IMG/VR virus record: IMGVR_UViG_3300023177_000002
DNA: 64,000 nt
Source: a virus
Direction: 5' to 3' (one strand)
Below are positions 6,847 to 62,540 of the stretch, in pieces. The translations under genes and the position numbers were made by a program. Numbering within the stretch: position 1 is the stretch's first letter; each line of letters starts with the position of its first letter. Below the pieces are notes generated by a model that made no database searches, had not been told where the DNA came from, and saw only the letters and a program-made list of their open reading frames with translations.

Positions 6847-6851
6847 ATAAG

Positions 6852-6925
6852 TGTCTGCGACGGGGAACGACCCCGTGTAACTAGTTTTAGAGACTAGTGC
6901 TTATTTCGTTCTCGGCCACGCAGAC
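6852..6925 (-). ncRNA. tRNA-like element with anticodon-like loop CUCUAAA (CUA)
   Basis: GTCTGCG...TCGCAGAC perfect 7-bp acceptor-like closure, 6-bp ACTAGT stem with 7-nt loop CTCTAAA, CGGGG/CCCCG arm with short loop; D-arm poor. Confidence 0.3.
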
Positions 6926-11157: not shown

Positions 11158-11724
11158 TTATAGATACAGCTTACGTTCGATTATATATTCACGCACCGAA
11201 TCAACTACTAATCCTTTTATTGTCAAATGATTTTTTATTCGATTACGAATATCCGTTGAACTCACTTGTATGTAGGGCATAGGTAGCGACCGAAACTTAT
11301 GTGCCATCAGAGGTGCAGTACTTCGTTCAGCCACTAAAATATGTTCGTGCCCGATAATCTCTACAAGTTCATTAGGGTCCTTCCAACGGTAAAAATCTAA
11401 TAATGAATCACCACCTAACAGCAAATATAAATCATCTTCTGGATAATGATCTTTAAATAATTTTACAGTGTCTATAGTATATGATACCTTATCACGGCAA
11501 ATCTCTGTTGTATCACAATAAGTACTTTCGCATTCGAACGCCGTTAATCGTGTCATAGCGACTATATGATGAGCTTCTGTATGTTTATGATCCTTTAATG
11601 GAGAAAGCGCATTAGGCACCATAGCTATACTATCCAAATGATATAATTCCTGAGCACTTCTACACAACCATAAATGTCCAGCGTGCGGCGGATCAAAACT
11701 GCCACCAAATATTCCTAGTTTCAT
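11158..11724 (-). CDS. nicotinamide/nicotinate mononucleotide adenylyltransferase (NMNAT/NadD family)
   Basis: N-terminal GGSFDPPHAGH nucleotidyltransferase (H/T)xGH motif. Confidence 0.75.
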   Translation of the reverse strand: MKLGIFGGSFDPPHAGHLWLCRSAQELYHLDSIAMVPNALSPLKDHKHTEAHHIVAMTRLTAFECESTYCDTTEICRDKVSYTIDTVKLFKDHYPEDDLYLLLGGDSLLDFYRWKDPNELVEIIGHEHILVAERSTAPLMAHKFRSLPMPYIQVSSTDIRNRIKNHLTIKGLVVDSVREYIIERKLYL

Positions 11725-12434
11725 GGGCGTGCTCGTAAAGTTGGTTCAAGCCACAAAGGTTTGTCATCAGAAAGTAATACGTCGCGCATTGATGGGTATC
11801 GATCAAACAATTCAAAAGTTCGTGTTGTACTTGTTTTGAACATTTTAAACAATTCGTCTTTTTTACGTTCCCAAGAAATACGATTATTCAATTTGTTTAA
11901 TAACTCACGATTACCAAAACATGCTTCTACTGATAAGTCGATCTGCATTTTTTTGGTTACGGCAAATCTTAACGCGCGTAGCATGCGTAAAGCATCTTCA
12001 TTGAAGCGATCTTCGGGCTTACCAACACATTTAATGAGATTATTTTGTATGTCAATCAACCCACCATGCGGGTCAATAAAAGGACGCTTTGGATCTTGCA
12101 TGTCGATCGCAATAGCATTCATTGTGAAATCACGTCTGGCTAGATCGTCATACAATGTGCCCAACTCAACAGTATCAGGTCTACGACCGTCTGAATAGTT
12201 ACCATCCTTTCGACATAACACAAAATCAGCATCACCAAAACCATCTATATGAGCACGGATAGTGAAGTATTCTGGGGTCTCGAGATATATTTTGCCTTTG
12301 GCAAGAATATAATTTCTCATTTCTTCCCAAGAAACTGCTACTACTGCATAATCAATATCTTTTGACTTAACGCGTAATATTAAATCTCTAACACTACCAC
12401 CAACTTGAAATATTCTGATCATTTGTTGTGCCAT
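11721..12434 (-). CDS. tRNA nucleotidyltransferase (CCA-adding enzyme family) head domain
   Basis: VGGSVRDLIL (GGxVRD) and RRDFTMNA motifs of polyA polymerase/CCA family; only 237 aa. Confidence 0.7.
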   Translation of the reverse strand: MAQQMIRIFQVGGSVRDLILRVKSKDIDYAVVAVSWEEMRNYILAKGKIYLETPEYFTIRAHIDGFGDADFVLCRKDGNYSDGRRPDTVELGTLYDDLARRDFTMNAIAIDMQDPKRPFIDPHGGLIDIQNNLIKCVGKPEDRFNEDALRMLRALRFAVTKKMQIDLSVEACFGNRELLNKLNNRISWERKKDELFKMFKTSTTRTFELFDRYPSMRDVLLSDDKPLWLEPTLRARP

Positions 12435-12958: not shown

Positions 12959-12987
12959 AATATACCTTTTTATTTAGTTTATGATTG

Positions 12988-13069
12988 TGCGCAAAAAGGG
13001 ACTCGAACCCTTATGGATTTCTCCGCCACCCCCTCAAGATGGTGTGTCTGCCAGTTCCACCATTTGCGC
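12988..13069 (-). tRNA. tRNA-Leu (anticodon GAG), type II
   Basis: acceptor GCGCAAA/TTTGCGC, D-loop GAACTGGCAGA, loop TTGAGGG, long variable arm, T-arm AAGGGTTCGAGTCCCTT. Confidence 0.7.
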
Positions 13070-14149: not shown

Positions 14150-15364
14150 TCATTCTTCAACCACGCATTCTGTGTGTATTTTATCTGGTCGTAGTCGCTG
14201 AATTATTCCAAACTGTAATTTTCCAGAATCTTGAATATCCTGATATTCGGCTTCGATTACAAAGTTCTTTTTTACTTTACCAGAATTTAGATCCTTTGTA
14301 AGTTGTGCTAGTTCATCGTGAGTTAGTTTACCAGGGCCGACATATCCACGATCGATAATGGTGCCTTTGGAGTCGTATTGTGCCACAGCAAACTTCGCAT
14401 AAAAATTGGCGTGTTTTCCGGATTTTCCCTTAAGCCATTCTGTGACAAAAAAGTCATCAGTTTTGAGAAATTTGTATTTATAACTTCCCGCTCGATGTGC
14501 TTCTCCATCCATTGTATAAGAGATATATGATTTCTCACCTGGCACACGAAGGACAAAACCCTCCCAATTTTCTTCTTCGGCAAATTGAAGTAGCTCCTTC
14601 CAATCTGTGTATATGGGGGGCACGTTGATATTGATAGATTTGAGTAATTCGAATCGTTTAGTATATTCTCTATTTCCGACAAAATCTCCTTTGAAGAATA
14701 GGACATCGAAGGGGATACAGTTGAATTGTCCATCTTTTGATAACTCGTTATAACGCGATATAGCCTCCGCAGCATCATCTTTACGAACAACCTGCGCTAC
14801 ATGTCTAGGCGATTCACGTTTTGTTGTGTTGTTATAATATATAAATTCGGTTAATAAAAACGTTTCACTTGGTAGTATAGCCAATAATTTTTTTATAGGC
14901 GGTAACTGTATTAATACGTCTGTACGATCTTCCATACGACGTGAAAATACTTTTTCGGTAGTTTTGCCTTTAACCAAGAATAAGCAATGCCCATCGAATT
15001 TTCTTTGTCCATACGTATTTTTACCATCAATAATTGATTGTGGTGTTTTAGATATAGGTTTATTAGGACAAAATGCTTCTGGTATATTATCCAGATCAAT
15101 AACAGTTTGCACTATTGATGAGGTAACTGAAGGCATCTTTGTATCGTAACCTTCTTTTTTCTTAATTACGATCTTGGCTTCCATCTCTGCCAATGCCTGC
15201 TCTGCAGGTGTAGTTTCATTAGCTTTACCGATATTCATTCCCACACATACCTTCACAGTTTCTTGCTGTTTACCGTTTAATTGCCCCCAACGAGTATAGA
15301 ATTTTTCTTTTACAGTCCAGAATTCTAATACTTTAATTTTTCCTGTTTTGCTTTTTTGGTACAA
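14150..15364 (-). CDS. ATP-dependent DNA/RNA ligase (nucleotidyltransferase superfamily)
   Basis: motif I QRKFDGHCLF (KxDG), motif III-like LLTEFIYY, motif IV-like EGFVLRV, motif V-like YKYKFLK. Confidence 0.6.
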   Translation of the reverse strand: MYQKSKTGKIKVLEFWTVKEKFYTRWGQLNGKQQETVKVCVGMNIGKANETTPAEQALAEMEAKIVIKKKEGYDTKMPSVTSSIVQTVIDLDNIPEAFCPNKPISKTPQSIIDGKNTYGQRKFDGHCLFLVKGKTTEKVFSRRMEDRTDVLIQLPPIKKLLAILPSETFLLTEFIYYNNTTKRESPRHVAQVVRKDDAAEAISRYNELSKDGQFNCIPFDVLFFKGDFVGNREYTKRFELLKSININVPPIYTDWKELLQFAEEENWEGFVLRVPGEKSYISYTMDGEAHRAGSYKYKFLKTDDFFVTEWLKGKSGKHANFYAKFAVAQYDSKGTIIDRGYVGPGKLTHDELAQLTKDLNSGKVKKNFVIEAEYQDIQDSGKLQFGIIQRLRPDKIHTECVVEE

Positions 15365-17617: not shown

Positions 17618-17989
17618 TTAGTGAGATTGTCCATCTATAACTGGAAACAAATCAAATATACGCATACCATGTGATTCGAAAGGTATATTAAAATCTTTAC
17701 AAGCAAGTCGTATTCGTTCTACTCCAAGTGGATTCCACGAAATACAACAAACTTTTTGTATTGACTTACCTGCTTTGCCATATTCGGTTATTAAATGAGA
17801 ACCATCATGACAACTATCTCCAAGATCATGATCCATGTAAATAATGTCATATACATTTTTCTGAATTAATTTCAACGCATCTTCAAATGTTGTGGCTACA
17901 TGAATATTGGTGCGGTTTAAATCAAACCACTCCGGTTGTTTTTCATCATCAACAAATAAAATCATTTTTTCGTATAACCCATGGATCAC
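17618..17989 (-). CDS. stand-alone response-regulator receiver (CheY-like REC) domain protein
   Basis: MILFVDDE ... IIYMDHDLGD pattern of REC acidic pocket and phospho-acceptor Asp. Confidence 0.5.
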   Translation of the reverse strand: MIHGLYEKMILFVDDEKQPEWFDLNRTNIHVATTFEDALKLIQKNVYDIIYMDHDLGDSCHDGSHLITEYGKAGKSIQKVCCISWNPLGVERIRLACKDFNIPFESHGMRIFDLFPVIDGQSH

Positions 17990-22040: not shown

Positions 22041-23438
22041 TTATTTTCTAAGTGCGGCAATCATATCTGTTTTATGCTTAAGTAATATATCACTTACACC
22101 TACTTTATAGATATGTGGGTTTTCAAATCTAGTGAATTCTTTTCCTAAGCTCTGCAGACGACTTTCCGCATAAAGTCTTGATGTACGTACGATAGGATTA
22201 GTTATTACAACCTTTCCATTTTCCACGCACTTTATTAAAAGCGCTTCGTTTTTTAGATCTCCAACATCTGATAATCTATCTGGATAAACAGGATCATACA
22301 ACTTCTTCGGTGGAGGCATTCCTGCGCAAGTAATACCGTCGCCATAAAAAGTGCCGTCGTTATTATAATAACGATACAGATCTTTTGGTCCGGGTAATGT
22401 AGCTTTTTCAGGATTATCTGAAAATTTCATTTTCGGCTGTCCTTGAATCGATGATAGTTTATATACACCATCATGAGCTCCAGCGCCAGCACCGATAATT
22501 AAATTTGTGCCTACACCATAAATATCAATAGGAGCGTCCTGTTCTTCTAGACTACGAATTACATATTCATCTAATTGATTAGATGCAACTATTTTTACAT
22601 AAGACAAATTGGCCTCATCAAGAAGATTTCTTGCTTTTTTGCTTAGGTACGCAAAGTCGCCGCTATCTAATCGGATACCATGTAATTTACATCCGTTGGC
22701 TTCAAGTTCTTTAGCTACGATTATTGCATTCGGCACACCACTTTTTAATGTATCATAAGTATCAACTAGCAACACTGTGTTGTGCGGATATTCTTTAGCA
22801 AACGCACGAAATGCAGTTAACTCGTTTTCAAAACCAAGTATCCAGGCATGAGCCATTGTACCTACCGCTAAGAGATCGTATTTCTTTGCGGCATAAACAT
22901 TAGAAGTTGAAGTTGCACCACCAATAATAGCGGCTTTACTCGCCAAAATACCTCCCAACCCCTGTGCACGTCGTAATCCCATATCAATTATAGGTCGTTC
23001 GTTTACAACTTGTTTTATACGTGCTGCTTTAGTTGCGATCAATGTACTGAAGTTGATAATGTTGAGCAACAGAGTTTCTAATAATTGACACTCTAGCCAA
23101 CCACCTTCAATTCGCAGTATAGGTTCATTTGGAAAAACAACTTCGCCCTCACGCACAGAATAGATATCGCCTTTGAATTGAAAGTCACGTAAATAACTCA
23201 AAAAGCCTGCGTGAAAAATTCCTTGATGAAATAAATACGTTGTATCTTCTTCGGTAAATTTCCAATTCTTTAAGATATCTAACAACTCACTTAATCCGGC
23301 AAATAATGCATAACCGCCGCCGTATGGGTTACGTCGATAAAAATAATCATACGTGGCTCGGTCATTATGGCGGCTCATCTGGAAATATCCTTGTGCCATA
23401 ACAAGTTGATACATATCTGTGTATAACCCGTAGTTCAT
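22041..23438 (-). CDS. nadV: nicotinamide phosphoribosyltransferase (NAMPT/NadV)
   Basis: 465-aa protein with NAMPT-like sequence throughout (MNYGLYTDMYQLVMAQGYF..., GTMAHAWI..). Confidence 0.75.
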   Translation of the reverse strand: MNYGLYTDMYQLVMAQGYFQMSRHNDRATYDYFYRRNPYGGGYALFAGLSELLDILKNWKFTEEDTTYLFHQGIFHAGFLSYLRDFQFKGDIYSVREGEVVFPNEPILRIEGGWLECQLLETLLLNIINFSTLIATKAARIKQVVNERPIIDMGLRRAQGLGGILASKAAIIGGATSTSNVYAAKKYDLLAVGTMAHAWILGFENELTAFRAFAKEYPHNTVLLVDTYDTLKSGVPNAIIVAKELEANGCKLHGIRLDSGDFAYLSKKARNLLDEANLSYVKIVASNQLDEYVIRSLEEQDAPIDIYGVGTNLIIGAGAGAHDGVYKLSSIQGQPKMKFSDNPEKATLPGPKDLYRYYNNDGTFYGDGITCAGMPPPKKLYDPVYPDRLSDVGDLKNEALLIKCVENGKVVITNPIVRTSRLYAESRLQSLGKEFTRFENPHIYKVGVSDILLKHKTDMIAALRK

Positions 23439-26118: not shown

Positions 26119-26562
26119 CTATATAACATAAATCGGTATTTTTGCTTCATTCAACATTATTAACGCCGCTTTAAAATTTTCGCCCCAACGCTCGTTAGCT
26201 TCGGGGTTATCTTCACATCGTGTATTATCGATATAAACTTCACAGATACCTGATTGAATTATAGCTCTGGCACATTCTGCACATGGATACCAACTTAAGT
26301 AAATACGTGCACCATCTAGAGATACGCCACGACGTGCTGCTAAGTAAATTGCATTCCTTTCGGCGTGTTCTGTGTACATATACTTAGCCGGGCGTTCGAA
26401 TCGTTCTGGAGATTCATTTACTAATCTAGGAATACCATTAAAACCCGTAGATATAATTTCATTATACGGCCCAACTATAACACATCCAACCTTTGTAGAG
26501 GGATCCTTGGACTTTGTTTTAATAACAGTTACTAAATCAAAAAAATATTTAGACCATTCCAT
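26119..26562 (-). CDS. dCMP/cytidine deaminase
   Basis: HAERNAI ... YPCAECARAI zinc-binding CDA motifs (HxE, PCxxC). Confidence 0.75.
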   Translation of the reverse strand: MEWSKYFFDLVTVIKTKSKDPSTKVGCVIVGPYNEIISTGFNGIPRLVNESPERFERPAKYMYTEHAERNAIYLAARRGVSLDGARIYLSWYPCAECARAIIQSGICEVYIDNTRCEDNPEANERWGENFKAALIMLNEAKIPIYVI

Positions 26563-27768: not shown

Positions 27769-28257
27769 TCATGCCAAATCCAATTGCAAAAATACTCTAG
27801 TTGTCATTAATAACGTACCCAGAATATTATACTTGTATTGAGTTTTGCAGTAATCACACGTACATGCTCCCCAGTAATTATCATGCCAAGTATTACCTTC
27901 TTCAAGAAAAAGATTACCCGTCGCTATTAACTTTTTTCGTAATTCGGGGTAATTAGTGAACTTGGCCGCCAACAACTGGGCCATAACAGTTTGTTTTATA
28001 AGTTCCCAATCAGGACGACGATCAACTATTCGTCCTAACTGTTTTGCTTTACCCGGAGTCGGTGCAACTCGAATTTCTTCGCGCTGCGCAGGATTCAATG
28101 TTTTGGCCGCCTGAAAAGCATGTTCAACCGTAGGATATTCAGCGCCATCATATGTGATGGGGGCTGGATAGAAATTTGATAAGAATTCCCACTCGTCCTT
28201 AAAACTTGTTATCGAATACAAATTTTGTTGCTCCTTCGTGTCCATGTATTTGCTCAC
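27769..28257 (-). CDS. NADAR / YbiA-like N-glycosidase domain protein
   Basis: FLSNFYPAP ... YPTVEHAFQAAK ... conserved YbiA/DUF1768 pattern. Confidence 0.6.
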   Translation of the reverse strand: MSKYMDTKEQQNLYSITSFKDEWEFLSNFYPAPITYDGAEYPTVEHAFQAAKTLNPAQREEIRVAPTPGKAKQLGRIVDRRPDWELIKQTVMAQLLAAKFTNYPELRKKLIATGNLFLEEGNTWHDNYWGACTCDYCKTQYKYNILGTLLMTTRVFLQLDLA

Positions 28258-28915
28258 AATCCTCGAATGTGTTATAAACAGTGACTGATGCTATTTTTCC
28301 ATACCATGTTACTACGCATTTACCGTTTGTAAATATAACTCCTTCTCCTACTATACCTTTTCCAGAAACACCGCTAACATCTTTTTCACGACTCAATTTG
28401 AATGTCCGTGGAATCACACTTTTCATTAAAGCGTCTAATGTTTCCCACATTTTTTCGTTACCATCGTTCGCAAAGAATAAGCGAGCTTTAAATTCTGGAT
28501 ACTCCTTCATATACATTGTCAGCTGCGGAGACTTTTCAGCCTTGGAATACCGCATGTTTGCTATACGGTCAGCTAATTTTAAACGTGTGAATCGCAAATG
28601 ACCCGCCGTTTTATTGTACATTGCTTCTTTGCGTTCCTTACGATTCTTACCTTCTCCATCAGTAACCGCTAAAACCAATGCAGTAGTTATCATACCAAAT
28701 TCTTCTTGCAGTTCCTCTTGCGAAGTTTTTGTGTCTTCTAATATATCATGTAAGAATCCTGCCGCTAACATCGATGGGTCGGTTTCGCCAAATTCCATTA
28801 AAACATGATAAACGTTATCAAGATGTACTATAATATCCACTGGCAATGTACCATATTTATGTCCTGCATGTCGTTTCTCTGCAAAGCTTCGTGCCTTTTT
28901 TACTAGTTCGTGCAT
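28199..28915 (-). CDS. HD-domain (p)ppGpp hydrolase (small alarmone hydrolase, SpoT/Mesh1-like) with extra C-terminal domain
   Basis: RHAGHKYGTLPY..H ... LHDILEDT HD motifs of RelA/SpoT hydrolase domain; start placed at MHELVKK. Confidence 0.6.
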   Translation of the reverse strand: MHELVKKARSFAEKRHAGHKYGTLPVDIIVHLDNVYHVLMEFGETDPSMLAAGFLHDILEDTKTSQEELQEEFGMITTALVLAVTDGEGKNRKERKEAMYNKTAGHLRFTRLKLADRIANMRYSKAEKSPQLTMYMKEYPEFKARLFFANDGNEKMWETLDALMKSVIPRTFKLSREKDVSGVSGKGIVGEGVIFTNGKCVVTWYGKIASVTVYNTFEDCEQIHGHEGATKFVFDNKF

Positions 28916-28917
28916 TG

Positions 28918-29529
28918 TTAAACCTCTATTGTTGTGTATTGTGCCTTTCCTAAACACTGAAAGGCAGTTTTGTGAATTATAAATTTTCGTGTATGATGGA
29001 AATGACCGAAACACCAATAAGATGGATTATGAAGTTCAAACATGGCTTGCAATAATTGATTTGTTCTGGAAGGTTGATTATACGCATGTTTTCCGTATAA
29101 ATATATCAGCATACTTATCTTTGCTATTTCCGGACAATCATGTGAAAGCACTATTCGTGGTTTTGACACCTCGTATAATTTTAAGGCTTCATAACATTGT
29201 CGCATTGACAGTTCCTCATCATACCACCAAGATACACCAGGAATTCTACTGTCCCAATCTGTCGACCAACCACCCCCTAGATAGAATATATCCCATTCTT
29301 CGATATATCCAAATTCTCCAAGATAATTAGGATGTGTTTTACATAGTTCTGGATTATCATGATTACCGCGGATAAATTTATGTTGAGACGGCAACTCAGG
29401 TAAAAATGTATTTGGGAATCCATGGGCCATATCGCCTAATTGAATTGAAGGTCCATCAATCTTCTTGATCATAGGCAAATATATTTCTGTGTATAATCCA
29501 TGTATATCACCAATTATATGTATTGTCAT
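28918..29529 (-). CDS. calcineurin-like metallophosphoesterase (Ser/Thr phosphatase or ApaH-like)
   Basis: GDIHG, GDMAHG, GNHDNPE motifs. Confidence 0.7.
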   Translation of the reverse strand: MTIHIIGDIHGLYTEIYLPMIKKIDGPSIQLGDMAHGFPNTFLPELPSQHKFIRGNHDNPELCKTHPNYLGEFGYIEEWDIFYLGGGWSTDWDSRIPGVSWWYDEELSMRQCYEALKLYEVSKPRIVLSHDCPEIAKISMLIYLYGKHAYNQPSRTNQLLQAMFELHNPSYWCFGHFHHTRKFIIHKTAFQCLGKAQYTTIEV

Positions 29530-29552: not shown

Positions 29553-30044
29553 TTAGCTAATAGTTATTTCTTTTTTGTCGATGCTTGGACTTGTTTTTGG
29601 AAGTTCGATAGTAAGAACTCCACTATCCATATTAGTTTTGATGGCATCTACATCTACATCGGCTGGAAGCGCCCAGGAACGATGAAACGAGGAAAAATGT
29701 ACTTCTTGAGCAAGATAACGTGTATCTTTCTTAGAAGCCTTCCCAGATTTCTCACCTTTTACAGTAAGAAACTTTCTTCCTTTATCATTTGTAACTTCTA
29801 ATTTAATTTGATCTTTTCCATAACCAGGCAAAGCCGCTTCTATGACAAATTCCTTGTCTGTTTCGGAAATGTTTACTTTTGGAAATGCTCGACCAATAGG
29901 TTCAAAACATAGTTCCAAATTTGCTGCCTCCTCAAAGGCTTTTCTAATATCATTAAGCCAATATTCTATATCAGAGGCAAAGTCTCTTTTTAAAATAGGT
30001 AGCATATATTTTCTCCTTATGAATGAAAATACGCTAAGGGGCAT
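29553..30044 (-). CDS. small heat-shock protein (Hsp20/alpha-crystallin)
   Basis: alpha-crystallin core FVIEAALPGYGKDQIKLEV ... TVKGEK; start trimmed to avoid tRNA-Arg. Confidence 0.7.
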   Translation of the reverse strand: MPLSVFSFIRRKYMLPILKRDFASDIEYWLNDIRKAFEEAANLELCFEPIGRAFPKVNISETDKEFVIEAALPGYGKDQIKLEVTNDKGRKFLTVKGEKSGKASKKDTRYLAQEVHFSSFHRSWALPADVDVDAIKTNMDSGVLTIELPKTSPSIDKKEITIS

Positions 30045-30048
30045 CTTG

Positions 30049-30122
30049 TACTCTCGGCGAGACTCGAACTCGCAACGCTCACGCTTAGAAGGCGCAGCTC
30101 TGTCCAATTGATGTACGAGAGC
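30049..30122 (-). tRNA. tRNA-Arg (anticodon TCT)
   Basis: acceptor GCTCTCG/CGAGAGT, loop CTTCTAA, T-arm GCGAGTTCGAGTCTCGC. Confidence 0.65.
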
Positions 30123-30130
30123 ATAATTTA

Positions 30131-30616
30131 TTAACAGGCTAAGTTTATATTCAGATACTCAGAGTCGCCAGTTACATATAAAAAACTGCCGAAGCGCCCC
30201 AATTCAGTGTCTGAGTAATTATCTGCTTCCTCTTCCGTAGCAAACTCTATTTCTCCAGTGATCAATGGCCATTTCCTCGAATGTTGATATACATCTAATT
30301 CTAATATAAGACCAGATTCCAGTGGAAAGTGATAACGTGTTTTGTAAACACGTCGACCAATTGTTAAGGGCCAAATTGCAATAAACACATTTTCATCTAT
30401 TTGACATTGTGCTTCGTCCCGAACTACACCCATTCCTAATTTATAATTTATTTTATAATCTTTTGTATTATCTTCATGTACTCGTTGAGTAAACCTAATC
30501 CCATCTATTGTATAACCCTGCATTAATTTTATTGATTTACTAGCTTGAGCCAGCTGTGGAAGCACAACATTCTCATCAAAGAACAAAAATTTATATTCAA
30601 TTTCTTTTGGTATCAT
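30131..30616 (-). CDS. hypothetical protein
   Basis: ORF. Confidence 0.4.
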   Translation of the reverse strand: MIPKEIEYKFLFFDENVVLPQLAQASKSIKLMQGYTIDGIRFTQRVHEDNTKDYKINYKLGMGVVRDEAQCQIDENVFIAIWPLTIGRRVYKTRYHFPLESGLILELDVYQHSRKWPLITGEIEFATEEEADNYSDTELGRFGSFLYVTGDSEYLNINLAC

Positions 30617-31173
30617 CCAAATTCAGCCCCTTCTTCATAACCTCGTTGTTCATTTTTTCCTATATTGAATATTTGATCTTTTCCTGCACGTACTCGTTTG
30701 GCATATCTATCATATAAAGTAAGATAAACAGCCGCTGCCAAGTTTGTGCAATGTTTCGTGGGTATAGTGACAATTCGATGGCAGTGTTGCATATGTACTC
30801 GTTCAATACCACCATCTTCTGGACCAAAAACATACACTGCATTATATGGATGTTCAAAGTCTAATAAGTTTTCAGAGTTTTCTCGCACTTCAATTGCAAT
30901 AGGAATTGCTTTTTCAAACATATCAAACGGATAATCAAATTGTGTGAGTGTAACTTCTTTATAACCCTTCATCCGTTCTTCTCTTGGTAAACGATAATCT
31001 TTTGTTGGTGTCATTGATACACGATTGCCGGTGTACCAAACCTGGGCTATACCAAAACAAGATGCAGCACGTATTATTGCGCCAACGTTTCTTGGATATT
31101 TAGGATTAATTAGTACGATCGAAGGAGTTACCCCGATCTTCTTATGGTTTTTACCGCAGATTAGTTGTTCCAT
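30613..31173 (-). CDS. SpoU-class RNA 2'-O-methyltransferase (TrmH/TrmL-like, likely tRNA)
   Basis: NVGAIIRAASCFG ... VFGPEDGGI ... IPT...NLAAAVYLTLYDRY SPOUT motifs. Confidence 0.65.
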   Translation of the reverse strand: MEQLICGKNHKKIGVTPSIVLINPKYPRNVGAIIRAASCFGIAQVWYTGNRVSMTPTKDYRLPREERMKGYKEVTLTQFDYPFDMFEKAIPIAIEVRENSENLLDFEHPYNAVYVFGPEDGGIERVHMQHCHRIVTIPTKHCTNLAAAVYLTLYDRYAKRVRAGKDQIFNIGKNEQRGYEEGAEFG

Positions 31174-33755: not shown

Positions 33756-33760
33756 ATGTG

Positions 33761-33835
33761 TGGGAGATCACGGGATCGAACCGTGGACCTTCGGTTTGTA
33801 GGACCGACGCTCTAAACCAGCTGAGCTAATCTCCC
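33761..33835 (-). tRNA. tRNA-Val (anticodon TAC)
   Basis: acceptor GGGAGAT/ATCTCCC perfect, stem TCGGT/ACCGA, loop CCTACAA, T-arm CACGGTTCGATCCCGTG. Confidence 0.75.
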
Positions 33836-34090: not shown

Positions 34091-34757
34091 TTACCATTTA
34101 CCCTTTATCCACGCTTTCAGATCGCGTCGCTCGTTTGTTCTATGGTCAATCCATAAATTATGTTTTACCATATAAGTACGAATTTTTTCTGCTCGATGTC
34201 CCGACCCCATCTGCAATCGTTTATTTTGGGCCGCTTGTTTTTGATGATTATATTTAGCGATACGTTGTAACTTAGAATATAATATTTCAAAAGCAAGTTG
34301 TTTGTTTTGGTACTGGGATCTTTCGGAACCGCAACGAACAGTTAACCCTGATTTATGTTTTAATACAACAACTGTTTCAACTTTATTACGATTCTGTCCT
34401 CCAGGACCGCTTCCTTTAGTGGTTGTAACTTCAACGTCATTAAAATTTATACTGACCTCGGGAAGTTCTATAAGATCCAACACTGCAACTGTTACAACAG
34501 AGGTATGTGTTCGTCCTCGGTTTTCTGTAGGAGGAACTCTGTGCCATTGGTGCGCACCACCCTCGTTTTCAAATAATTCCTTTGCTCTTTGTCCGATAAC
34601 CTGAACTGAAGCAAACCCATCACTAACATATATTGGAATTGCCTCAAAGTCCGTGTTTATACGCGACTTTTAAATAAATACTTAATTGATCCTCGACGAG
34701 GAGTTTTGCATCCGCTCCACCCTCGCCAGCTTGTAATTCCAATAAAATGTTACTCAT
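34091..34757 (-). CDS. class I peptide chain release factor homolog (RF1-like, GGQ and PxT-type motifs, lacks domain 1) requiring +1 frameshift at 34644-34649
   Basis: upstream segment LELQAGEGGADAKLLVEDQLSIY (RF domain 2) ends at CUU UGA; +1 frame continues EAIPIYVSDGF...HQWHRVPPTENRGRTHTSVV...SGPGGQNRNKVETVV...IRTYMV matching RF1 domains 2-4. Confidence 0.7.
34644..34649 (-). other. candidate programmed +1 ribosomal frameshift site CUU UGA (G), identical core to prfB site
   Basis: minus-strand CTT TGA GGC; reading CTTT|GAG GCA restores RF-like frame. Confidence 0.55.
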
Positions 34758-34814
34758 GATGTTTTTCCTTTCTACCCAAGGTTTGAATTTCTTCAGGGAC
34801 ACAAGGGGAATGTA

Positions 34815-34889
34815 GGTGACCGATGGGATTCGAACCCATAACGTACAGGGCCACAACCTGTCGGACTAAGCCAATTGTCCTACGGCCAC
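34815..34889 (-). tRNA. tRNA-His (anticodon GTG)
   Basis: acceptor GTGGCCG/CGGTCAC, stem ACAGG/CCTGT, loop TTGTGGC, T-arm ATGGGTTCGAATCCCAT. Confidence 0.75.
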
Positions 34890-34974: not shown

Positions 34975-35039
34975 ATATCGCGGGTAATTTAAGCGACGTC
35001 AGTGTTTTTAATTTAGCTACTACGTATTTTCATACGCGC

Positions 35040-35112
35040 TAGGACTTGAACCTAGAGTGTTATATTTTTGAGATATATGCTTTAACCGATAACTAACATC
35101 TATCGACCCGCT
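35040..35112 (-). pseudogene. degenerate tRNA-like element (T-arm and CAA anticodon-like hairpin but no acceptor pairing)
   Basis: CTAGGTTCAAGTCCTAG T-arm, TATAT/ATATA stem with loop CTCAAAA; 5'/3' ends do not pair. Confidence 0.3.
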
Positions 35113-49515: not shown

Positions 49516-49959
49516 TTAAATTAATTTTCCGGTCATATGATCCAACTCATGTTGTATAATAATTGCCGGCATACCGACAAATTTATCAACGTGTGGAGTA
49601 CCTTCCTCATCCATATATGATACGGTAACGATTTCTCGACGAATACATCTTTTCTTATACCCGGGTTTTGACATACATCCTTCTTCAAACGAGAAGTATT
49701 TACCCGATCTTTTTGCCGTTGCATTTATAAATACTTTCCAATTATCAGAAATATTTACTACAAATACATGCGGTATGGGCTCATTTTCTTTTGTCCAGAT
49801 TTGATTACTTGCCAGCCCCATACATATTTCATAGTTCTTAGCGGTGTCTATTAAATCTACTGCCAACAAGGCCGCTGGGCCCACTTCACCACGAGTAGCT
49901 GGTGTTCGTAATATCCGCAATTGTGCCTCGTTATCTGCTTTATTTATCGACACAACCAT
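49516..49959 (-). CDS. def: peptide deformylase
   Basis: GLASNQIW (GxGxAAxQ), EGCMS (EGCLS), QHELDHMTG (QHExDH) motifs. Confidence 0.8.
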   Translation of the reverse strand: MVVSINKADNEAQLRILRTPATRGEVGPAALLAVDLIDTAKNYEICMGLASNQIWTKENEPIPHVFVVNISDNWKVFINATAKRSGKYFSFEEGCMSKPGYKKRCIRREIVTVSYMDEEGTPHVDKFVGMPAIIIQHELDHMTGKLI

Positions 49960-50188
49960 ATTTTAACCTTTCATGATATTTACATAAATAATCATACGCA
50001 TTTTCAGCGTCCAATAACGTGTTATATGTTTCTTTTATAGTAGTAATTTTTATTCCAAGAAAGTAAAGAATATATATTAATAAACAGTGTGATTCTTCTG
50101 GTTTCAATATTATTTTGCATGTTGTAAAATTGCGTCTGTACTTGGTCATAATCATAGTTGTGTAAATACTCTCTTTCTTGCATACCAT
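49940..50188 (-). CDS. hypothetical small protein
   Basis: ORF. Confidence 0.3.
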   Translation of the reverse strand: MVCKKESIYTTMIMTKYRRNFTTCKIILKPEESHCLLIYILYFLGIKITTIKETYNTLLDAENAYDYLCKYHERLKYGCVDK

Positions 50189-50718
50189 TGGAATTTTAGT
50201 AAATCTATATTTACATCCGCAAAATCAATAATGACTGGATTCTTTTTTATCTTATTTGAAACTCGCATTAGTCTGCCGGCGCTTTGTTTTAACCACACTT
50301 TACTTCGTGTTGGTGCGCATATAAATAAGATCTCAAGCTCCTTCAGATCGATGCCTTTATGAAACAATTGCCAGGTAGTAACAACAATACGCTTTTTACC
50401 GCTTTCAAGTTGCTGCATAATAGCGGCGCGATCTTTTTTCTTTACACTGGATAATAAAACTACGGAGTCCGGTAGTAACGCACCCAGTCTCTGAGCATGT
50501 TCTTGTCTATGACACAATAGAACACATTGTTGTGTTTTATATTTATTTACGGTGTCAACTATTAATTTATTTCTTATGTCATTAGTACCCATATCCGTTA
50601 TCATGATACCATATTCTGACGTATCAAATAATGGATACGTATATGAAGTTTTTATATACTCATATACAGGTTTTACAATTCTATCTGCAACAGCGGCATC
50701 TGGAACCTGATGTACCAA
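50152..50718 (-). CDS. helicase C-terminal domain segment (split gene, second part)
   Basis: motif VI QSAGRLMR, helicase C-domain pattern; N-terminal partner at 51827-52474. Confidence 0.6.
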   Translation of the reverse strand: MVHQVPDAAVADRIVKPVYEYIKTSYTYPLFDTSEYGIMITDMGTNDIRNKLIVDTVNKYKTQQCVLLCHRQEHAQRLGALLPDSVVLLSSVKKKDRAAIMQQLESGKKRIVVTTWQLFHKGIDLKELEILFICAPTRSKVWLKQSAGRLMRVSNKIKKNPVIIDFADVNIDLLKFQWYARKRVFTQL

Positions 50719-50959
50719 TGGGCCGGTTAACCAGAATATTACTTTAGTAAGACCATCAGCTCGTTCTGGTGTGGCTGATAATCCATATTTATATTTTGCT
50801 GGTATCTTTGAAATAACTTCAGCGTATGTTTTTGCTGGTACGATGTGTCATTTTGTTATCATTGAGGTTGTTATCTCAATTTCTACAAATTACTTTGTAG
50901 CTCGGCATATATTTTCATCCTATAAGGATGTCAAGGACTCTTGGGAATATTATATTTAT

Positions 50960-51820
50960 TCAATTCCTATGCTCTACACTGCGCAGGGCCTGTTTGCTAT
51001 CCTTGCGTTTAGCACGGTATTGCCCATCACGGGTTTTTACCGTTTTTCCTTGATTTACACCTTTGATCTTACGATCAAGTGCGGCACAAGCTTTTTCAAA
51101 TAATGCTTTTTTTCTCTTTAGAAAAATTGTACTGTCTTTATATAAATAATTAAATATTCTAACAACTTCAATTAAATTAGTCGTCTCTAATCTAAATATT
51201 GAGCGGTGTTTTGTTATCTTAGTATAAAGTTTTAATCTTTTATGGCACCAAGAAACAACATCGATATTGCCAGATATGTCAAAACAGTATCTAAGATGAG
51301 GAACTTTTCTTATATATATCGAACCATCACCATCAAATATACCCCTAATAAAATGATGTGTGTATTTTATAGGAATATTTTTGGGTTTTCCACCTCGTAG
51401 AGATTTTTGTGGCAAGCACCCTTTAGCTATGACGTCTAATCTCATTTGTTTATTATTTATATAATACACCGCTAAAGGTTGTTTTGATATTTGAATCTTT
51501 GCCTTGGTTCCTAAAATATCTTTAATCCGTCGCAACATGTACAGATCATTCGGATGTAGTGCTAAGGTCATGCCTGGGCGATTTTTTCTAACACAACCGT
51601 CGGCGAATATTAATCCAAGTATATACGCTTTTTCTTCTGTATCTATATTTTTAAAATAACGACTATTCAAACCAGGGTGTCTGCATTCTTCGTAGTCCCT
51701 AGTTAATTTTTCTTCATGTATAACATTGTATACTAATTCTTTTGAAGCAATGTGTAGTTTTTGCATTATTTGATAAGCCGACAACCCACTTTTATATAAT
51801 ATCTTAATTTTATTTTTCAT
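50960..51820 (-). CDS. LAGLIDADG homing endonuclease (double motif) inserted within helicase gene
   Basis: LGLIFADGCV and IRGIFDGDGSI motifs; own ATG 6 nt after stop of upstream helicase segment. Confidence 0.75.
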   Translation of the reverse strand: MKNKIKILYKSGLSAYQIMQKLHIASKELVYNVIHEEKLTRDYEECRHPGLNSRYFKNIDTEEKAYILGLIFADGCVRKNRPGMTLALHPNDLYMLRRIKDILGTKAKIQISKQPLAVYYINNKQMRLDVIAKGCLPQKSLRGGKPKNIPIKYTHHFIRGIFDGDGSIYIRKVPHLRYCFDISGNIDVVSWCHKRLKLYTKITKHRSIFRLETTNLIEVVRIFNYLYKDSTIFLKRKKALFEKACAALDRKIKGVNQGKTVKTRDGQYRAKRKDSKQALRSVEHRN

Positions 51821-51826
51821 AAGTTA

Positions 51827-52474
51827 TTATACGTAATATGTGGACCTTGTCAATACCTCATCGCATATTATCATTCCGAATTTATTTAATTCTGATTGAT
51901 CAATTTTTTTTACGCTTTGTAATAGCCCTACAGTTATTGGTTTTATTTTTCTTTCGCCCGCGCCGATTTTTCCTATATTCTTTACTGAGGTGAACTGTTT
52001 TAATCGCGCAATAAATTGATGCGCAAGTTCTATAGTATCTACCAGTATCAATGTAGGTTGTTTTAGTTTTGCAAGTAACGCACAGGCTATAACGGTTTTT
52101 CCTGAAGCCGTGATAGAGCATAAAACCCCGTTTGTTGTATTACTTAATACATCTACTGCAGTTTTTTGATAATCTCGTAACTCCCCGGTAAATTCTATTT
52201 GTATAGGAGTTTTGCTATAATAGCGATTATCATCAATCTGTAAATTAGGATTTATTATCTTCAATGACGAAAGGAAACCAACGGGGGCGGTTATTGTATT
52301 GTTTGCTTCTGTGTAAAATCGAAGCTTTGGTTCGATCCCCCACAGACTTTTGTTCATACTCATAGCCGTTACCCAGGTTGGATTTTCGGTCACAAGGCTC
52401 GCTTTTATCTGGTGTGCCTCGTCTTCTGTGTAATCGGTTATGGTTAATTCACCACTTATATTTACATTCATCAA
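51827..52474 (-). CDS. helicase N-terminal ATPase segment (split gene, first part)
   Basis: Walker A ITASGKT, motif II ICDEV; ORF stops ~10 aa after motif II. Confidence 0.6.
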   Translation of the reverse strand: MMNVNISGELTITDYTEDEAHQIKASLVTENPTWVTAMSMNKSLWGIEPKLRFYTEANNTITAPVGFLSSLKIINPNLQIDDNRYYSKTPIQIEFTGELRDYQKTAVDVLSNTTNGVLCSITASGKTVIACALLAKLKQPTLILVDTIELAHQFIARLKQFTSVKNIGKIGAGERKIKPITVGLLQSVKKIDQSELNKFGMIICDEVLTRSTYYV

Positions 52475-53310: not shown

Positions 53311-56082
53311 ATGGCAGATCAAGATCTTGAATATAGACTAAAAATAGACACAAGTGATTTAGCTTCTCAACTACAACAGGTACGCGCACAAATCGACCAG
53401 GCCCTCGGTGCGCAAGTATTTAATACAATTACTCCTTCAACACAACCCGCAGCTTTTGCTTTCCCAATGCAGCAAGCGCTGGCAAATGCACAAATATCGC
53501 TAGGGCAAGATATAAATAATACAATAAGCGCGGCACAGAATGCGCAGAACGATGTACATCGTGCAATGCAATCCATGCGTCTTGGATTTCAGAAATTTAA
53601 TAACGATGTAATGACATCTTATTTATCACAGGTTGATGTACCCATGTTTGCATCTGCACAAGGTGCGCCAATACCGTCATTTCATAACCGCGGTGTTTTT
53701 CAAAACTTAACCGCCAATGTTATTGGTTTGGGATATGACCCATCAATGTCACTTACGCCAGGAGAGTTCCGACGACGCGCAGGCTATGAATTTGCTAATC
53801 AATCAGGCAGGTTAACATTTGGAATAGGCGGTTCAATGCTTGGTGGTATAGCAGGAAGCCTAACTCCAATACCTTTTGGAAGTGTTATTGGAACTGTACT
53901 CGGAGGTATGGTAGGTGATATGGCATATGATGTCGCAGGAACTACCATATTACGAGATTACGAACAAGCAAGCGCAATCCGTGATTTTGCATATAATACT
54001 TCTTGGCGTACATTTGCTGGAAGATTCACAAGACAGCAAGCTTTACAGATTGGCCAGGATTTATCAACTGTAGCAAGAAGCGAGGCATTGGTTGGATATG
54101 GTGTTACAAATACTGATGTACAACGTGTAATGCAGGAATATACCGCTATTGGTGGGTTCGATACTGTAAGATCAGCAGAAGAATATCGAACTCGTGCAAA
54201 AGATATGATTGAGAATCATCGCAAAGTAATGCAGATATTACGTCTTACTGAAGAAGACGCTTTACAGTATATGAATACCATGCAAATGTATGGACGACCT
54301 ATAACCGGTAATTCAGCAATAGGTACAGCTACAATGGCATATGCTGCTGGTTATACACCAAAAGAATTTATGTCATTTGCACAACAAGCTGCGGAGATGG
54401 TACGTGGTACCGGGATAAATTTAGGGTCAGCGTTTGCGGGAGGAATGGATGCATTATTACGTACTAAATCATTTGTCGAAGCAGGCACCGTTCCGATGGA
54501 ACTAATACAACAGTATGGTGGAATACAACAATATACATTAAATACAACTCGTATGGGATACGAATGGGCTAATAGTATGAATGGCTTTACTCGTTTTGCT
54601 GCGGGTATGACATCGGGCGGATTAATGGGTACCGTTGGTATGAGTCCACAAGAAGCGATTGGTACCGCAGTTGCAAATCTTAGTGCCGGGGGAATCGAAG
54701 GCATATTGGGAATGCAGGGTCGTATGGGTAAATTAATCAGTAATGAAAATCCCACAGTCCTTGCGGCTATGCGCGGATTAGATATAGCATCAGTTATGAA
54801 GATGTTAAATATAAATCCTACAATGGAAAATTTTATGGGATTTGCGCAGACAACACTAGGGGTGTCGTTACCAGATGCCGAATCATCATATCGAATGGCT
54901 ACAGGAGGTGCAACGGTTAATATAGCTAAACTACGTAATACCGGCTATCAAACAGCGGTTGATATGGCTCCATCGACACTTGCCCAGATGTCTGATCGTT
55001 TTACAAATGTCATTAGTAATACAATGGCTGCTACAGGAAACTTTCTAGGATTACCTACGGCTTTGCGAGGATTAGAACAATACGCTGAAAAAGTACTTGG
55101 TAACGCAACATTGAGAGAGCCTGATTATATAACACGTACACGCACTTCTGCTATAAACGCCCTGTTCACTGGAATAGATCACGAACGTTTCGATGATTTA
55201 CAAAAAGTTCTTGGATCTGAAAAAGCGGTGGTCGACTTAATATATGCTTCTGAAAATGAACGAAAAAATATACTTGAAAGTGTGTCTGACGCAAATGACA
55301 AACAAACAACTCTTGCACGAGAATATTTTATAAATCGAAATTTAAATAAATTACGTCAAGTTGATTCAAAAACCACGGCGGCGGAGAAGACGCTGCAAGA
55401 ACGACTTGCCGAGCCAATGACACAAGAAAAAATGCAACTTCTTATAAATGAAAAGTTGGTGTCAAATATAAAAGATTTTGCTAAACCCGGGATGACTAAG
55501 GGGGAAGCAACTAGAATAACACAATTGTATAACAAAACTACTGCGGCACAAGAAGAGCAAACAGTAAGTGATATATTAGCAGGCCCGCAAGTTTCTTTTT
55601 TACGAGGAATAGCGCGGGGGCTAGATGAATGGGGGCTAGAACGTGAAGATATTGCATCGCGTGTTGAAGTTAGTAAGACATTTCGAGCAAATAAATGGCT
55701 GACAGCCACATTAAACCGCGCTGGCGCTGTGGTCGCTCGTGGCGCCGCCGAGCTTATCGGACGAGGTACTGGTGCCGATACTTTCAATTCTCAAACCAGT
55801 GATCTATTACAAGAATCAGGAATTAGTGCCGAGAAAGCAAAAGTAGACGATCAGCTGAAAGATCAAAAAAAGGTAAATGACCAACTGGATCTAATAGCAA
55901 AACAAATGAAACAGTTCGGCGCAATAGGTATGACTGGAGGACTAAGTCCTGAAGCAACGATGCAAGCACAAAGTAACGCTGCGCAGGCAGCGGCATTGAA
56001 AGAAATTATTACAAACACAGCTACGCTGAAAAAAGCTGCTGATCAAGCCACTGGTTATATAAATGTTAAAGTACATTGGTAA
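53311..56082 (+). CDS. putative tail tape measure protein (923 aa)
   Basis: very long ORF after chaperone-frameshift pair, Q/A-rich helical sequence with internal Gly-rich hydrophobic segment. Confidence 0.45.
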   Translation: MADQDLEYRLKIDTSDLASQLQQVRAQIDQALGAQVFNTITPSTQPAAFAFPMQQALANAQISLGQDINNTISAAQNAQNDVHRAMQSMRLGFQKFNNDVMTSYLSQVDVPMFASAQGAPIPSFHNRGVFQNLTANVIGLGYDPSMSLTPGEFRRRAGYEFANQSGRLTFGIGGSMLGGIAGSLTPIPFGSVIGTVLGGMVGDMAYDVAGTTILRDYEQASAIRDFAYNTSWRTFAGRFTRQQALQIGQDLSTVARSEALVGYGVTNTDVQRVMQEYTAIGGFDTVRSAEEYRTRAKDMIENHRKVMQILRLTEEDALQYMNTMQMYGRPITGNSAIGTATMAYAAGYTPKEFMSFAQQAAEMVRGTGINLGSAFAGGMDALLRTKSFVEAGTVPMELIQQYGGIQQYTLNTTRMGYEWANSMNGFTRFAAGMTSGGLMGTVGMSPQEAIGTAVANLSAGGIEGILGMQGRMGKLISNENPTVLAAMRGLDIASVMKMLNINPTMENFMGFAQTTLGVSLPDAESSYRMATGGATVNIAKLRNTGYQTAVDMAPSTLAQMSDRFTNVISNTMAATGNFLGLPTALRGLEQYAEKVLGNATLREPDYITRTRTSAINALFTGIDHERFDDLQKVLGSEKAVVDLIYASENERKNILESVSDANDKQTTLAREYFINRNLNKLRQVDSKTTAAEKTLQERLAEPMTQEKMQLLINEKLVSNIKDFAKPGMTKGEATRITQLYNKTTAAQEEQTVSDILAGPQVSFLRGIARGLDEWGLEREDIASRVEVSKTFRANKWLTATLNRAGAVVARGAAELIGRGTGADTFNSQTSDLLQESGISAEKAKVDDQLKDQKKVNDQLDLIAKQMKQFGAIGMTGGLSPEATMQAQSNAAQAAALKEIITNTATLKKAADQATGYINVKVHW

Positions 56083-56091
56083 CGAGGATAT

Positions 56092-62539: not shown

Positions 62540-62540
62540 T

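Follow-up and report, generated by a model that had tools for sequence, protein, structure and literature searches.

Programmed +1 frameshifting in a release-factor gene is a textbook case of recoding and was thought to be confined to prfB, the gene of release factor 2 (RF2). The shifty-stop mechanism of prfB has been reviewed (PMC5009743), and a survey from 2025, which covered more than 12,000 bacterial genomes, detected the programmed frameshift in prfB only, none in prfA, and no UAG among 8,164 prfB motifs (PMC12421855). The closest precedent for a viral release factor (RF) gated by recoding is the class-I RF gene of Mimivirus and Megavirus, whose internal stops are passed by both a frameshift and a readthrough (PMC3521657). 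Full-length RF1 and RF2 genes are also known from recoded phages (Jade, Lak, Agate) and from huge phages, often near transfer RNA (tRNA) genes (bioRxiv 10.1101/2021.08.26.457843; PMC7162821). In another relative, PrfH, the decoding region is altered in a way of its own, and the gene is without exception downstream of rtcB (PMC1586002, PMC6514570); the PrfH literature consulted mentions no frameshift requirement (PMC1586002). Peptide release does not need domain 1 of RF1, which serves only the interplay with RF3, and a truncated RF1 without this domain releases peptide in vitro and functions in vivo (reviewed in PMC1586002). Here we describe a locus on the minus strand, at positions 34091-34757 of a 64,000-nucleotide stretch of IMG/VR virus record IMGVR_UViG_3300023177_000002 (the whole stretch is called the window below), in which an RF1-like factor lacking domain 1 appears to be made through a +1 frameshift at CUU UGA.

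The gene is laid out in two frames, as seen in Table 1. A first open reading frame (ORF), ORF0, covers the beginning of RF domain 2, with its first strand and with helix alpha-5, whose tip is EGGADA. It starts five residues ahead of the first domain-2 strand and aligns from position 104 of the RF1 model and from residue 107 of T. thermophilus RF1. ORF0 runs to a slippery P-site codon, CTT (34649-34647), which is followed by the frame-0 stop TGA (34646-34644). When a single base, T 34646, is skipped, the +1 frame stays free of stops for 184 codons (34645-34094) until a TAA at 34093-34091. It reads EAIPIYVSDGF...PPT...GGQ...IKGKW, contains HQWHRVPPTENRGRTHTS and GSGPGGQNRNKVE, and corresponds to the remainder of domain 2 followed by domains 3 and 4. 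A preliminary description, made from the letters of the window alone and without naming the strand, had given the same anatomy for this interval, namely an ORF ending at CTT TGA, a +1 continuation and an RF1-like protein with PPT and GGQ. The fused product that it proposed was also recovered, at 221 amino acids instead of the 220 stated, with HGLEAIPIYVSDGFASVQVIGQR as the junction peptide.

Past the TGA, frame 0 holds six further codons before it meets a TAG, and readthrough of the TGA would add just 7 residues. The earliest ATG, GTG or TTG in the +1 frame is the GTG at 34483. It lies 3' of the PPT loop, so independent initiation cannot yield a decoding-competent protein. Since frame 0 stops after six codons and the +1 frame has no start before the PPT loop, there is no other route to a functional product. 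The start of ORF0 is preceded by a Shine-Dalgarno (SD)-like run; four clade relatives with distinct upstream sequence have AGGAG or AAGGA at the same place, and SD-like 4-mers were seen ahead of 28 of 54 window ORFs compared to a background of 13%. No SD-like run was found 5' of the shift site of the window, which reads AAA CAC GGA there (AAACACGGA), and GGAGG is absent throughout the clade of the window. The preliminary description was therefore correct that no strong SD lies upstream, which holds for the window and its clade, but most other relatives do have GGAGG 3 nucleotides (nt) upstream. The hexamer CTTTGA by itself is not unusual, as 37 copies were counted in the window and 41.7 were expected. 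The significance of the site comes from the one continuous RF1 alignment over both frames and from the layout kept in relatives, not from the hexamer.

To compare relatives, 91 loci were reconstructed, starting from IMG/VR and from huge-phage genomes (Al-Shayeb et al.); once five closer relatives of the window had been added, there were 84 distinct sequences. A +1 shift was needed in 49 of these, mostly large phage contigs. In all 49, the shift falls at the same aligned residue, at CTT followed by TGA (46) or TAG (3), and in nearly all of them this codon stands 31 codons past the EIRAAEGG motif. CTT occupies the site in 49/49 sequences versus 17.5% of the other Leu codons of these genes, which has a probability of about 1e-37 by chance. 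GGAGG was found exactly 3 nt 5' of the CTT in 27 of the 49, which is the geometry of prfB, and the stop was followed by C in 31 sequences and by G in 13. At the homologous place, single-frame relatives carry Phe codons and no SD-like run. The prfB-type shifty stop consists of a P-site codon able to re-pair (CUU to UUU) followed by a frame-0 stop, and this arrangement was found in the window (CTT TGA, 34649-34644), with the site and both frames conserved across diverged homologs; the SD-like stimulator 3 nt upstream was absent from the window.

Conservation was also seen close to the window. Five distinct relatives from other samples, with 60-79% protein identity, all kept the 37-codon ORF0, the cassette and a +1 ORF of 184-185 codons, and a 37-residue ORF was called 5' of the RF ORF in loci L179, L182, L183, L184 and L187. 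Over the six clade members (60-79% protein identity), A-C-GGA-CTT-TGA-(C/G)-G-C is invariant, and third codon positions nearby vary. In a collection of 5.8 billion protein sequences, the ORF calls were N-terminally truncated in 94 of the best 120 clusters; among the matches listed, the truncated calls have their start in the +1 frame, with '...FD/FE...' across C TTT GAS. A metagenome scan with the family alignment returned mostly cellular RF1 and gained little.

The fused product matched the NCBIfam RF1 model in a single stretch (positions 104-329 of 347, 175.7 bits, E = 1e-51). When it was compared by hidden Markov model with PrfA, PrfB and PrfH, as the preliminary description had proposed, RF1 was best with 175.7 bits, ahead of RF2 (120), PrfH (75) and also ArfB (37). 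A similar order was obtained against solved structures, with 138 bits for T. maritima RF1, 121 for T. thermophilus RF1, 83 for RF2 and 38-40 for the PrfH chains (9MOR, 7SA4). The RF1 cut-offs (NF001859 / TIGR00019) were not reached (175.7 versus 400 bits, and 170 versus 423), and the best of 24 family representatives, at E = 1.8e-74, was still well under the RF1 cut-off. The product also failed the test for RF2 (TIGR00020; 120 bits versus 370), having the tripeptide PPT and not SPF, and the test for ArfB/ICT1, where the match was confined to residues 99-134 (37 bits versus 100) and a full domain 2/4 is present. The resemblance to PrfH that had been suggested earlier held for the missing domain 1 but not for the rest, because the PrfH model (TIGR03072) gave 75.4 bits versus 166.65, the RF1-type PxT loop is kept and the fold is more distant (see below). 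Pfam reported the C-terminal half of PCRF and a complete RF-1 domain. There was no dedicated family for the short form in PHROGs and no NCBIfam model matched at its cut-off. Domain 1, the part of RF1 of about 100 residues that contacts RF3 and the L11 stalk, is absent: the alignment begins at model position 104, and the RF gene is preceded, at a distance of 58 nt, by the gene of a tRNA-His.

An AlphaFold2 model of the fused protein, with database homologs as the input alignment, had a mean predicted local distance difference test score of 92.7 and a predicted template modeling (TM) score of 0.77. The block means at residues 21-70, which span the junction, were 96-97. In Foldseek, the model was closest to ribosome-bound RF1 (TM 0.91-0.92 at 1.9-2.0 Å), followed by RF2 (0.82-0.85) and PrfH (0.64). 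The decoding elements are strongly conserved in the family, as HRWQR(V/I)PPTE.RGR.HTS and the EGG(D/E)DA helix tip, and the loop tripeptide is PPT in most members. These data suggest that the gene encodes a 221-amino-acid class-I release factor of RF1 ancestry with domains 2, 3 and 4 only. The protein is neither PrfH nor RF2 nor a canonical RF1.

Members of the family were also found in bacteria. Bacterial genomes were searched with a degenerate DNA pattern for HRWQR[VI]PPTE, which yielded 79 loci (L193-L271), 78 of which could be classified. A +1 shift at CTT TGA (46) or CTT TAG (22) was present in 68 of the 78, and TAA was found in none. The hosts are mainly Myxococcota (Nannocystis, Kofleriaceae, Polyangiaceae and Minicystis rosea), with complete Nannocystis and Minicystis genomes included, and some loci are in Betaproteobacteria, where the site lies 41 codons past the motif. 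In Nannocystis, the genes around the RF locus are conserved between species. Together with the 49 two-frame sequences, these 68 loci have the same layout and the same shift codon, which supports the central proposal of the preliminary description, an RF1-like factor without domain 1 reached through a prfB-style shift at CUU UGA G. A homolog on plasmid 2 of Variovorax sp. WDL1 (NZ_LR594690.1; L272:5971-6675) is a member with an in-frame TGA. RefSeq splits it into two coding sequences, a 56-amino-acid 'hypothetical protein' and a 172-amino-acid 'peptide chain release factor-like protein'. Recoding in this family is not recognized in public annotation.

Across the 35 distinct single-frame members, 35 internal stops were counted (32 TGA, 3 TAG), all at positions equivalent to window residues 37-52. 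Those listed with an in-frame stop are L003, L013-L016, L019, L021, L024, L025, L027, L029, L034, L037, L040 and L042-L046, and further ones are L056, L062, L068, L081, L086 and L096. In four of them the stop lies at most two aligned residues from the shift site (TGA in L029, L037 and L096, TAG in L024). As for TGG, 55 of the 56 Trp codons of this type in single-frame members lie outside the equivalents of residues 37-52, and all Trp outside this range is encoded by TGG. General recoding of TGA (code 4) was considered and is not supported, because reading TGA as sense brings no greater gain in the flanks of single-frame members, or in 50-kb samples from three huge phages, than it does in the window. 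No tRNA-UCA was seen in these flanks and samples. Since the surroundings look like standard-code DNA and no tRNA-UCA was seen, the in-frame stops are candidates for programmed readthrough. They look like sites with the same checkpoint role as the frameshift, and the whole family thus has an early stop-codon checkpoint. In a neighbor-joining tree, the clade of the window is a deep branch of the frameshift type, at least seven switches between frameshift and in-frame forms are needed, and UAG arose three times within UGA clades. The close relatives L001 and L048 differ only in the stop.

The window also has a tRNA with anticodon CUA, an amber suppressor, and recoding of TAG in the window phage was suspected for this reason. 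This was rejected for the window, since ORFs of at least 100 amino acids cover 83% of the window under the standard code and there is no excess of in-frame TAG joins. TAG is a rare stop in the window, used by 8 of 88 ORFs of at least 120 amino acids. An amber-suppressor tRNA was also found about 900 nt 3' of the RF gene in L034, L035 and L056, which are gated by UGA.

We put at roughly 0.9 the probability that one frameshift-dependent release factor is made from the two frames. In the mechanism that we propose, a ribosome with peptidyl-tRNA-Leu at codon 37 (CUU) and UGA in its A site would slip by one base to UUU and resume at GAG. Slow decoding of the stop in the A site would let the peptidyl-tRNA-Leu re-pair from CUU to UUU, as in the shifty stop of prfB. 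The weak stop context, UGA followed by C or G, would favor the slip, and so would SD:anti-SD pairing 3 nt upstream in most relatives. Termination at the UGA would leave a dead-end peptide of 37 residues, and the slip would give the full factor. Since this 37-mer would be useless, output of the factor should rise when UGA is decoded slowly. Synthesis of the factor would then be inversely tied to RF2-type termination in the infected cell, by the host RF2 and possibly by the factor itself. The product would be a stop-codon-dependent, RF3-independent peptidyl-tRNA hydrolase acting on ribosomes, which is expected because the RF1 decoding elements and GGQ are kept and only domain 1 is lost. The factor would join 35 tRNAs, tRNA repair and maturation enzymes and a peptide deformylase in the set of translation genes that this jumbo phage (about 215 kb) carries. 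The tRNA-Leu(GAG) of the phage, the isoacceptor that reads CUU, may by analogy be the slipping tRNA, and the model does not require it. We consider the full mechanism, including stop-codon-dependent release and the inverse coupling to UGA termination, to be likely. The two-frame layout, the RF1 homology and fold of the fused protein and the strong conservation of the cassette over the family are direct observations, from which we infer that frameshifting occurs and with what efficiency, which release factor is sensed and which stop codons are read.

Several observations weigh against this mechanism. The window and its clade have no SD-like stimulator although the genes of the window use SD-like start signals, and no convincing conserved RNA structure was found 3' of the shift in this SD-less clade (alifold -4.9 kcal/mol). 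The efficiency of the shift in the window may be low. Alternatively, the shift might rely on the supply of tRNA, the GGA codon in the E site or the conserved ACGGA context. The frameshift was also deduced from sequence. The checkpoint is UGA, a stop that would not be expected to be read by an RF1-type PxT factor, and thus the self-limiting logic of prfB does not follow automatically. In addition, the amber-suppressor tRNA(CUA) of the window would compete with an RF1-type factor at UAG, and the location among RNA-repair genes also fits a role in ribosome rescue. Regarding the checkpoint, it is plausible that the gene senses host RF2 rather than its own product, as the preliminary description had proposed; it is also possible that the factor reads UGA and regulates itself, or that the site is mainly an attenuator.

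By its sequence, the factor should read UAA and UAG. This specificity cannot simply be read from the tripeptide, due to variation at the Gln181 position and a remodeled domain-2 hairpin. The residue aligned to Gln181 of T. thermophilus RF1 is Gln in most members, His in the clade of the window, and Val, Ile or Leu, as in RF2, in many in-frame members. The family lacks the six-residue hairpin loop equivalent to residues 172-177 of Salmonella RF2, and the window has Tyr at the position of RF2 Glu167. RF2 with substitutions at E167, E170, E172 and K177 reads UAG and UGG (PMC7530605). In the phage set, SPT was found in 2 of 3 UAG members and 2 of 46 UGA members, a weak hint that the tripeptide follows the checkpoint stop. 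This correlation was rejected because it is contradicted by the bacterial set, where PPT occurs with both stops. In that set the identical HRWQR(V/I)PPTE loop accompanies UGA and UAG checkpoints and never UAA. Since UGA and UAG sites are mixed behind an identical decoding loop, self-regulation is still conceivable.

The RF gene lies within a one-strand array of 35 tRNA genes (window 431-36587, minus; ARAGORN). The set serves 18 of the 20 amino acids, with none for Ala and all five Leu isoacceptors, and both tRNA-His and tRNA-Tyr are upstream of the RF gene. One more weak tRNA match, at 35031-35103 (31 bits), was reported by Rfam and not called by ARAGORN. An island of genes for tRNA repair, tRNA maturation and nicotinamide adenine dinucleotide (NAD) metabolism is interleaved with the tRNAs (window 11158-31781, minus), and its members are listed in Table 1. 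Three further translation functions had been named in the preliminary description. The peptide deformylase is present, but ARAGORN and Rfam found no transfer-messenger RNA (tmRNA) in the window, and a Pfam scan of 61 window ORFs did not detect PTH2. Farther along, a helicase appears to be split (window 50152-52474, minus): ResIII/DEAD lies at 51827-52474 and Helicase_C at 50152-50718, with an ORF carrying a LAGLIDADG domain at 50960-51820 between them, which may be an intein or a homing-endonuclease insertion. The coding strand switches near 52.6 kb together with a change in GC skew, and the region at 53311-63893 is on the plus strand. The three large ORFs scanned there (923, 790 and 635 amino acids) had no match in Pfam and are possibly structural genes.

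Table 1. Features of the release-factor locus and of its surroundings in the window
Feature	Position	Strand	Basis or remark
ORF0, codons 1-37 (ATG 34757 to CTT 34649-34647)	34647..34757	-	Translation MSNILLELQAGEGGADAKLLVEDQLSIYLKVAYKHGL
Shift cassette AAA CAC GGA CTT TGA GGC	34641..34658	-	Sequence reading and relatives
Next frame-0 stop, TAG	34623..34625	-	Frame-0 translation
+1 ORF, codons 38-221 and TAA stop	34091..34645	-	Translation; Pfam PCRF and RF-1
PPT tripeptide, residues 75-77, RF1-type PxT 'anticodon' loop within HQWHRVPPTENRGRTHTS	34526..34534	-	Alignment to T. maritima and T. thermophilus RF1
GGQ catalytic motif, residues 119-121	34394..34402	-	Translation and RF1 alignment; invariant in alignments A1-A3
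SD-like GAAAGGAAA 5' of the ORF0 start	34764..34772	-	Sequence; putative function
tRNA-His	34815-34889	-	ARAGORN; 58 nt upstream of RF gene
tRNA-Val	33760-33835	-	ARAGORN; downstream of RF gene
RNA ligase, PF09414	31173-31781	-	Pfam; 2.3 kb downstream of RF gene
SpoU methylase	30613-31173	-	Pfam
HSP20	29553-30107	-	
Metallophosphoesterase	28918-29529	-	
HD protein (HD_4)	28199-29017	-	
NADAR	27769-28257	-	
Cytidine/tRNA-type deaminase	26119-26562	-	
NAPRTase	22041-23438	-	
cREC_REC	17618-17989	-	
ATP-dependent DNA ligase	14150-15364	-	
tRNA-Leu(GAG), isoacceptor reading CUU	12987..13069	-	ARAGORN
CCA-adding-type nucleotidyltransferase	11721-12434	-	
NMNAT-like protein	11158-11724	-	
tRNA with anticodon CUA, amber suppressor	6851-6925	-	ARAGORN, labeled Pyl
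Peptide deformylase	49516-49959	-	Pfam, 81.8 bits

A two-frame gene could also result from a pseudogene or an assembly error, in which a 1-nt indel has broken an intact RF gene and no functional protein is made. It is true that gene callers and RefSeq show a truncated RF or two ORFs at these places. However, an identical shift region and fused protein were found in two independent assemblies (ENA ERZ27250193 k141_197835, 214.5 kb, and Logan SRR7616076), which were reached through a protein cluster 99% identical to a 130-amino-acid ORF of the window (P0002), a look-up under that ORF itself having returned no record. This excludes a 1-nt sequencing error; no near-identical DNA was found among GenBank phages. 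At one and the same codon, 49 distinct sequences, mostly from phage contigs, and 68 loci of bacteria have the same CTT T(GA/AG) break. The protein sequence is conserved in both halves, the reconstructed genes show no further disruption, and synonymous positions are conserved around the shift site. A single contaminating source is excluded by the 37-79% divergence of the loci. With the two-frame layout and the stop conserved in related phages, the gene is not a decayed pseudogene; this explanation is effectively refuted and we give it almost no credence. It is also very unlikely that the locus makes two separate products, the 37-residue peptide and a GGQ-only, ArfB-like hydrolase started internally, for example at GTG 34483. 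Public pipelines do call the 130-amino-acid ORF from this GTG, and it is present in a public protein collection (P0001) from contigs of up to 215 kb. With an internal start, the best-conserved stretches of the family would be lost, namely the HRWQRVPPTE loop and the alpha-5 helix. ORF0 itself is conserved, as the strand and helix that open domain 2, and AlphaFold packs it with the remainder into one confident fold. In a variant of the same idea, transcriptional slippage at the short T run would restore the frame, but three Ts are too few for efficient slippage by the polymerase, and the strict stop after CTT and the GGAGG at a 3-nt spacing point to the ribosome.

Other explanations accept the frameshift-dependent protein and differ in its purpose. 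Its job might be ribosome rescue coupled to RNA repair, like that of PrfH with RtcB, in which case it would free peptides from ribosomes jammed by cleaved tRNA or ribosomal RNA during host defense and would not serve ordinary termination. Domain 1 is missing as in PrfH, and an RNA ligase, a SpoU methylase, a metallophosphoesterase and an HD protein lie 2-6 kb from the RF gene, with cREC_REC and the CCA-adding enzyme further off in the same tRNA island. Elsewhere in the family, four distant phage loci (L083, L084/85, L093) have an RNA-ligase homolog next to the RF gene, and L183 and L187 have Tpt1 there. In Novimethylophilus kurashikiensis (L196:1575-3788), a Pnkp-like kinase/metallophosphatase/T4-type RNA ligase of 737 amino acids is directly upstream on the same strand, and one IMG/VR phage contig has a tmRNA (tag ANDNATASPALLAA; L077:718-1076) about 400 nt upstream of a frameshifted RF gene. 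We nevertheless find a rescue role, the main functional rival of our proposal, quite unlikely. The decoding region of PrfH is remodeled, whereas the family keeps the RF1 PxT loop, HTS and the acidic helix tip almost unchanged, and both the score (75 bits, far under the PrfH cut-off of 167) and the fold (TM 0.64 to PrfH versus 0.92 to RF1) separate the two. RtcB was not found among the neighbors scanned, including the 61 window ORFs searched with Pfam (the PF09414 ligase of the window is of another enzyme family), and the association with RNA repair may just reflect the clustering of translation genes at tRNA arrays. Gating by a stop codon suggests that decoding stop codons is the business of the factor. 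A more far-reaching proposal, which we regard as tentative and somewhat unlikely, is that the checkpoint, whether frameshift or readthrough, is autoregulation throughout the family by a factor that has evolved, on an RF1 scaffold lacking domain 1, a broadened specificity, which would include UGA and perhaps all three stops in a single 'omnipotent' RF. This would fit the single RF-like match in each of the huge-phage records examined, the amber-suppressor tRNAs that co-occur with UGA-gated members, the use of UGA or UAG and never UAA behind an identical loop, the switching between UGA and UAG in close relatives and the remodeled hairpin of RF2 specificity. If it were true, jumbo phages and Myxococcota would use a single release factor of bacterial type.

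The locus belongs to a family that is large and widely overlooked, present in jumbo and huge phages, in Myxococcota and in some other bacteria. Under the frameshift-dependent mechanism that we favor, it would be a second, independent natural system in which termination efficiency is sensed by recoding. The family makes it testable which stop codons a minimal RF reads and why phages carry one. It also exposes systematic misannotation, as the truncated cluster calls and the split RefSeq homolog demonstrate. No published frameshift in a phage RF gene or an RF1-like RF gene was found in a literature search that mostly did not include subscription-journal papers. The class of mechanism is known; what is new is the different position of the site, the RF1-derived family without domain 1, and the variants with UAG and with in-frame stops.

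Each of the described systems shares some of these features. As with RF1 (PrfA), which is the best match in sequence and fold, the PxT-type loop, HTS, GGQ and domains 2-4 are conserved. In contrast to RF1, the window protein has no domain 1, is about 140 residues shorter, has a shortened domain-2 hairpin and needs recoding, and its clade has His where Gln181 of T. thermophilus RF1 aligns. PrfH (RFH) resembles the family in its lack of domain 1, its similar length and its GGQ, and in that some family members stand beside RNA-repair genes, but the decoding loop of the family is RF1-like and no RtcB was found among the neighbors scanned. The RFs of recoded and huge phages were described as ordinary RF1 or RF2 tied to the change of code, with no mention of a missing domain 1, a frameshift or a checkpoint, and the window itself shows no recoding. 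The Mimivirus RF is likewise a virus-encoded factor behind recoding, and the phage family uses frameshift or readthrough in its different members. However, the Mimivirus protein is of the eukaryotic/archaeal eRF1 type and belongs to a virus of amoebae, whereas this family is of the bacterial RF1 type and is found in phages and bacteria, and the two are evolutionarily unrelated. The CUU-UGA core, which the preliminary description had equated with that of prfB, is indeed the same, but the position is not homologous: the family site aligns to residue 161 of RF2 (Phe161), in domain 2, and the prfB site is codon 26, in domain 1. The family also differs from prfB and RF2 in that its protein is RF1-like with PPT and not SPF, in the use of UAG for UGA in 3/49 phage-set and 22/68 bacterial sequences, and in the SD-less clade of the window. 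In common with prfB, a short ORF0 ends in CUU right before the frame-0 stop, C is preferred after the stop (31/49), GGAGG stands 3 nt upstream in 27/49 relatives, and the functional product, made in the +1 frame, is itself a class-I release factor (PMC5009743, PMC12421855).

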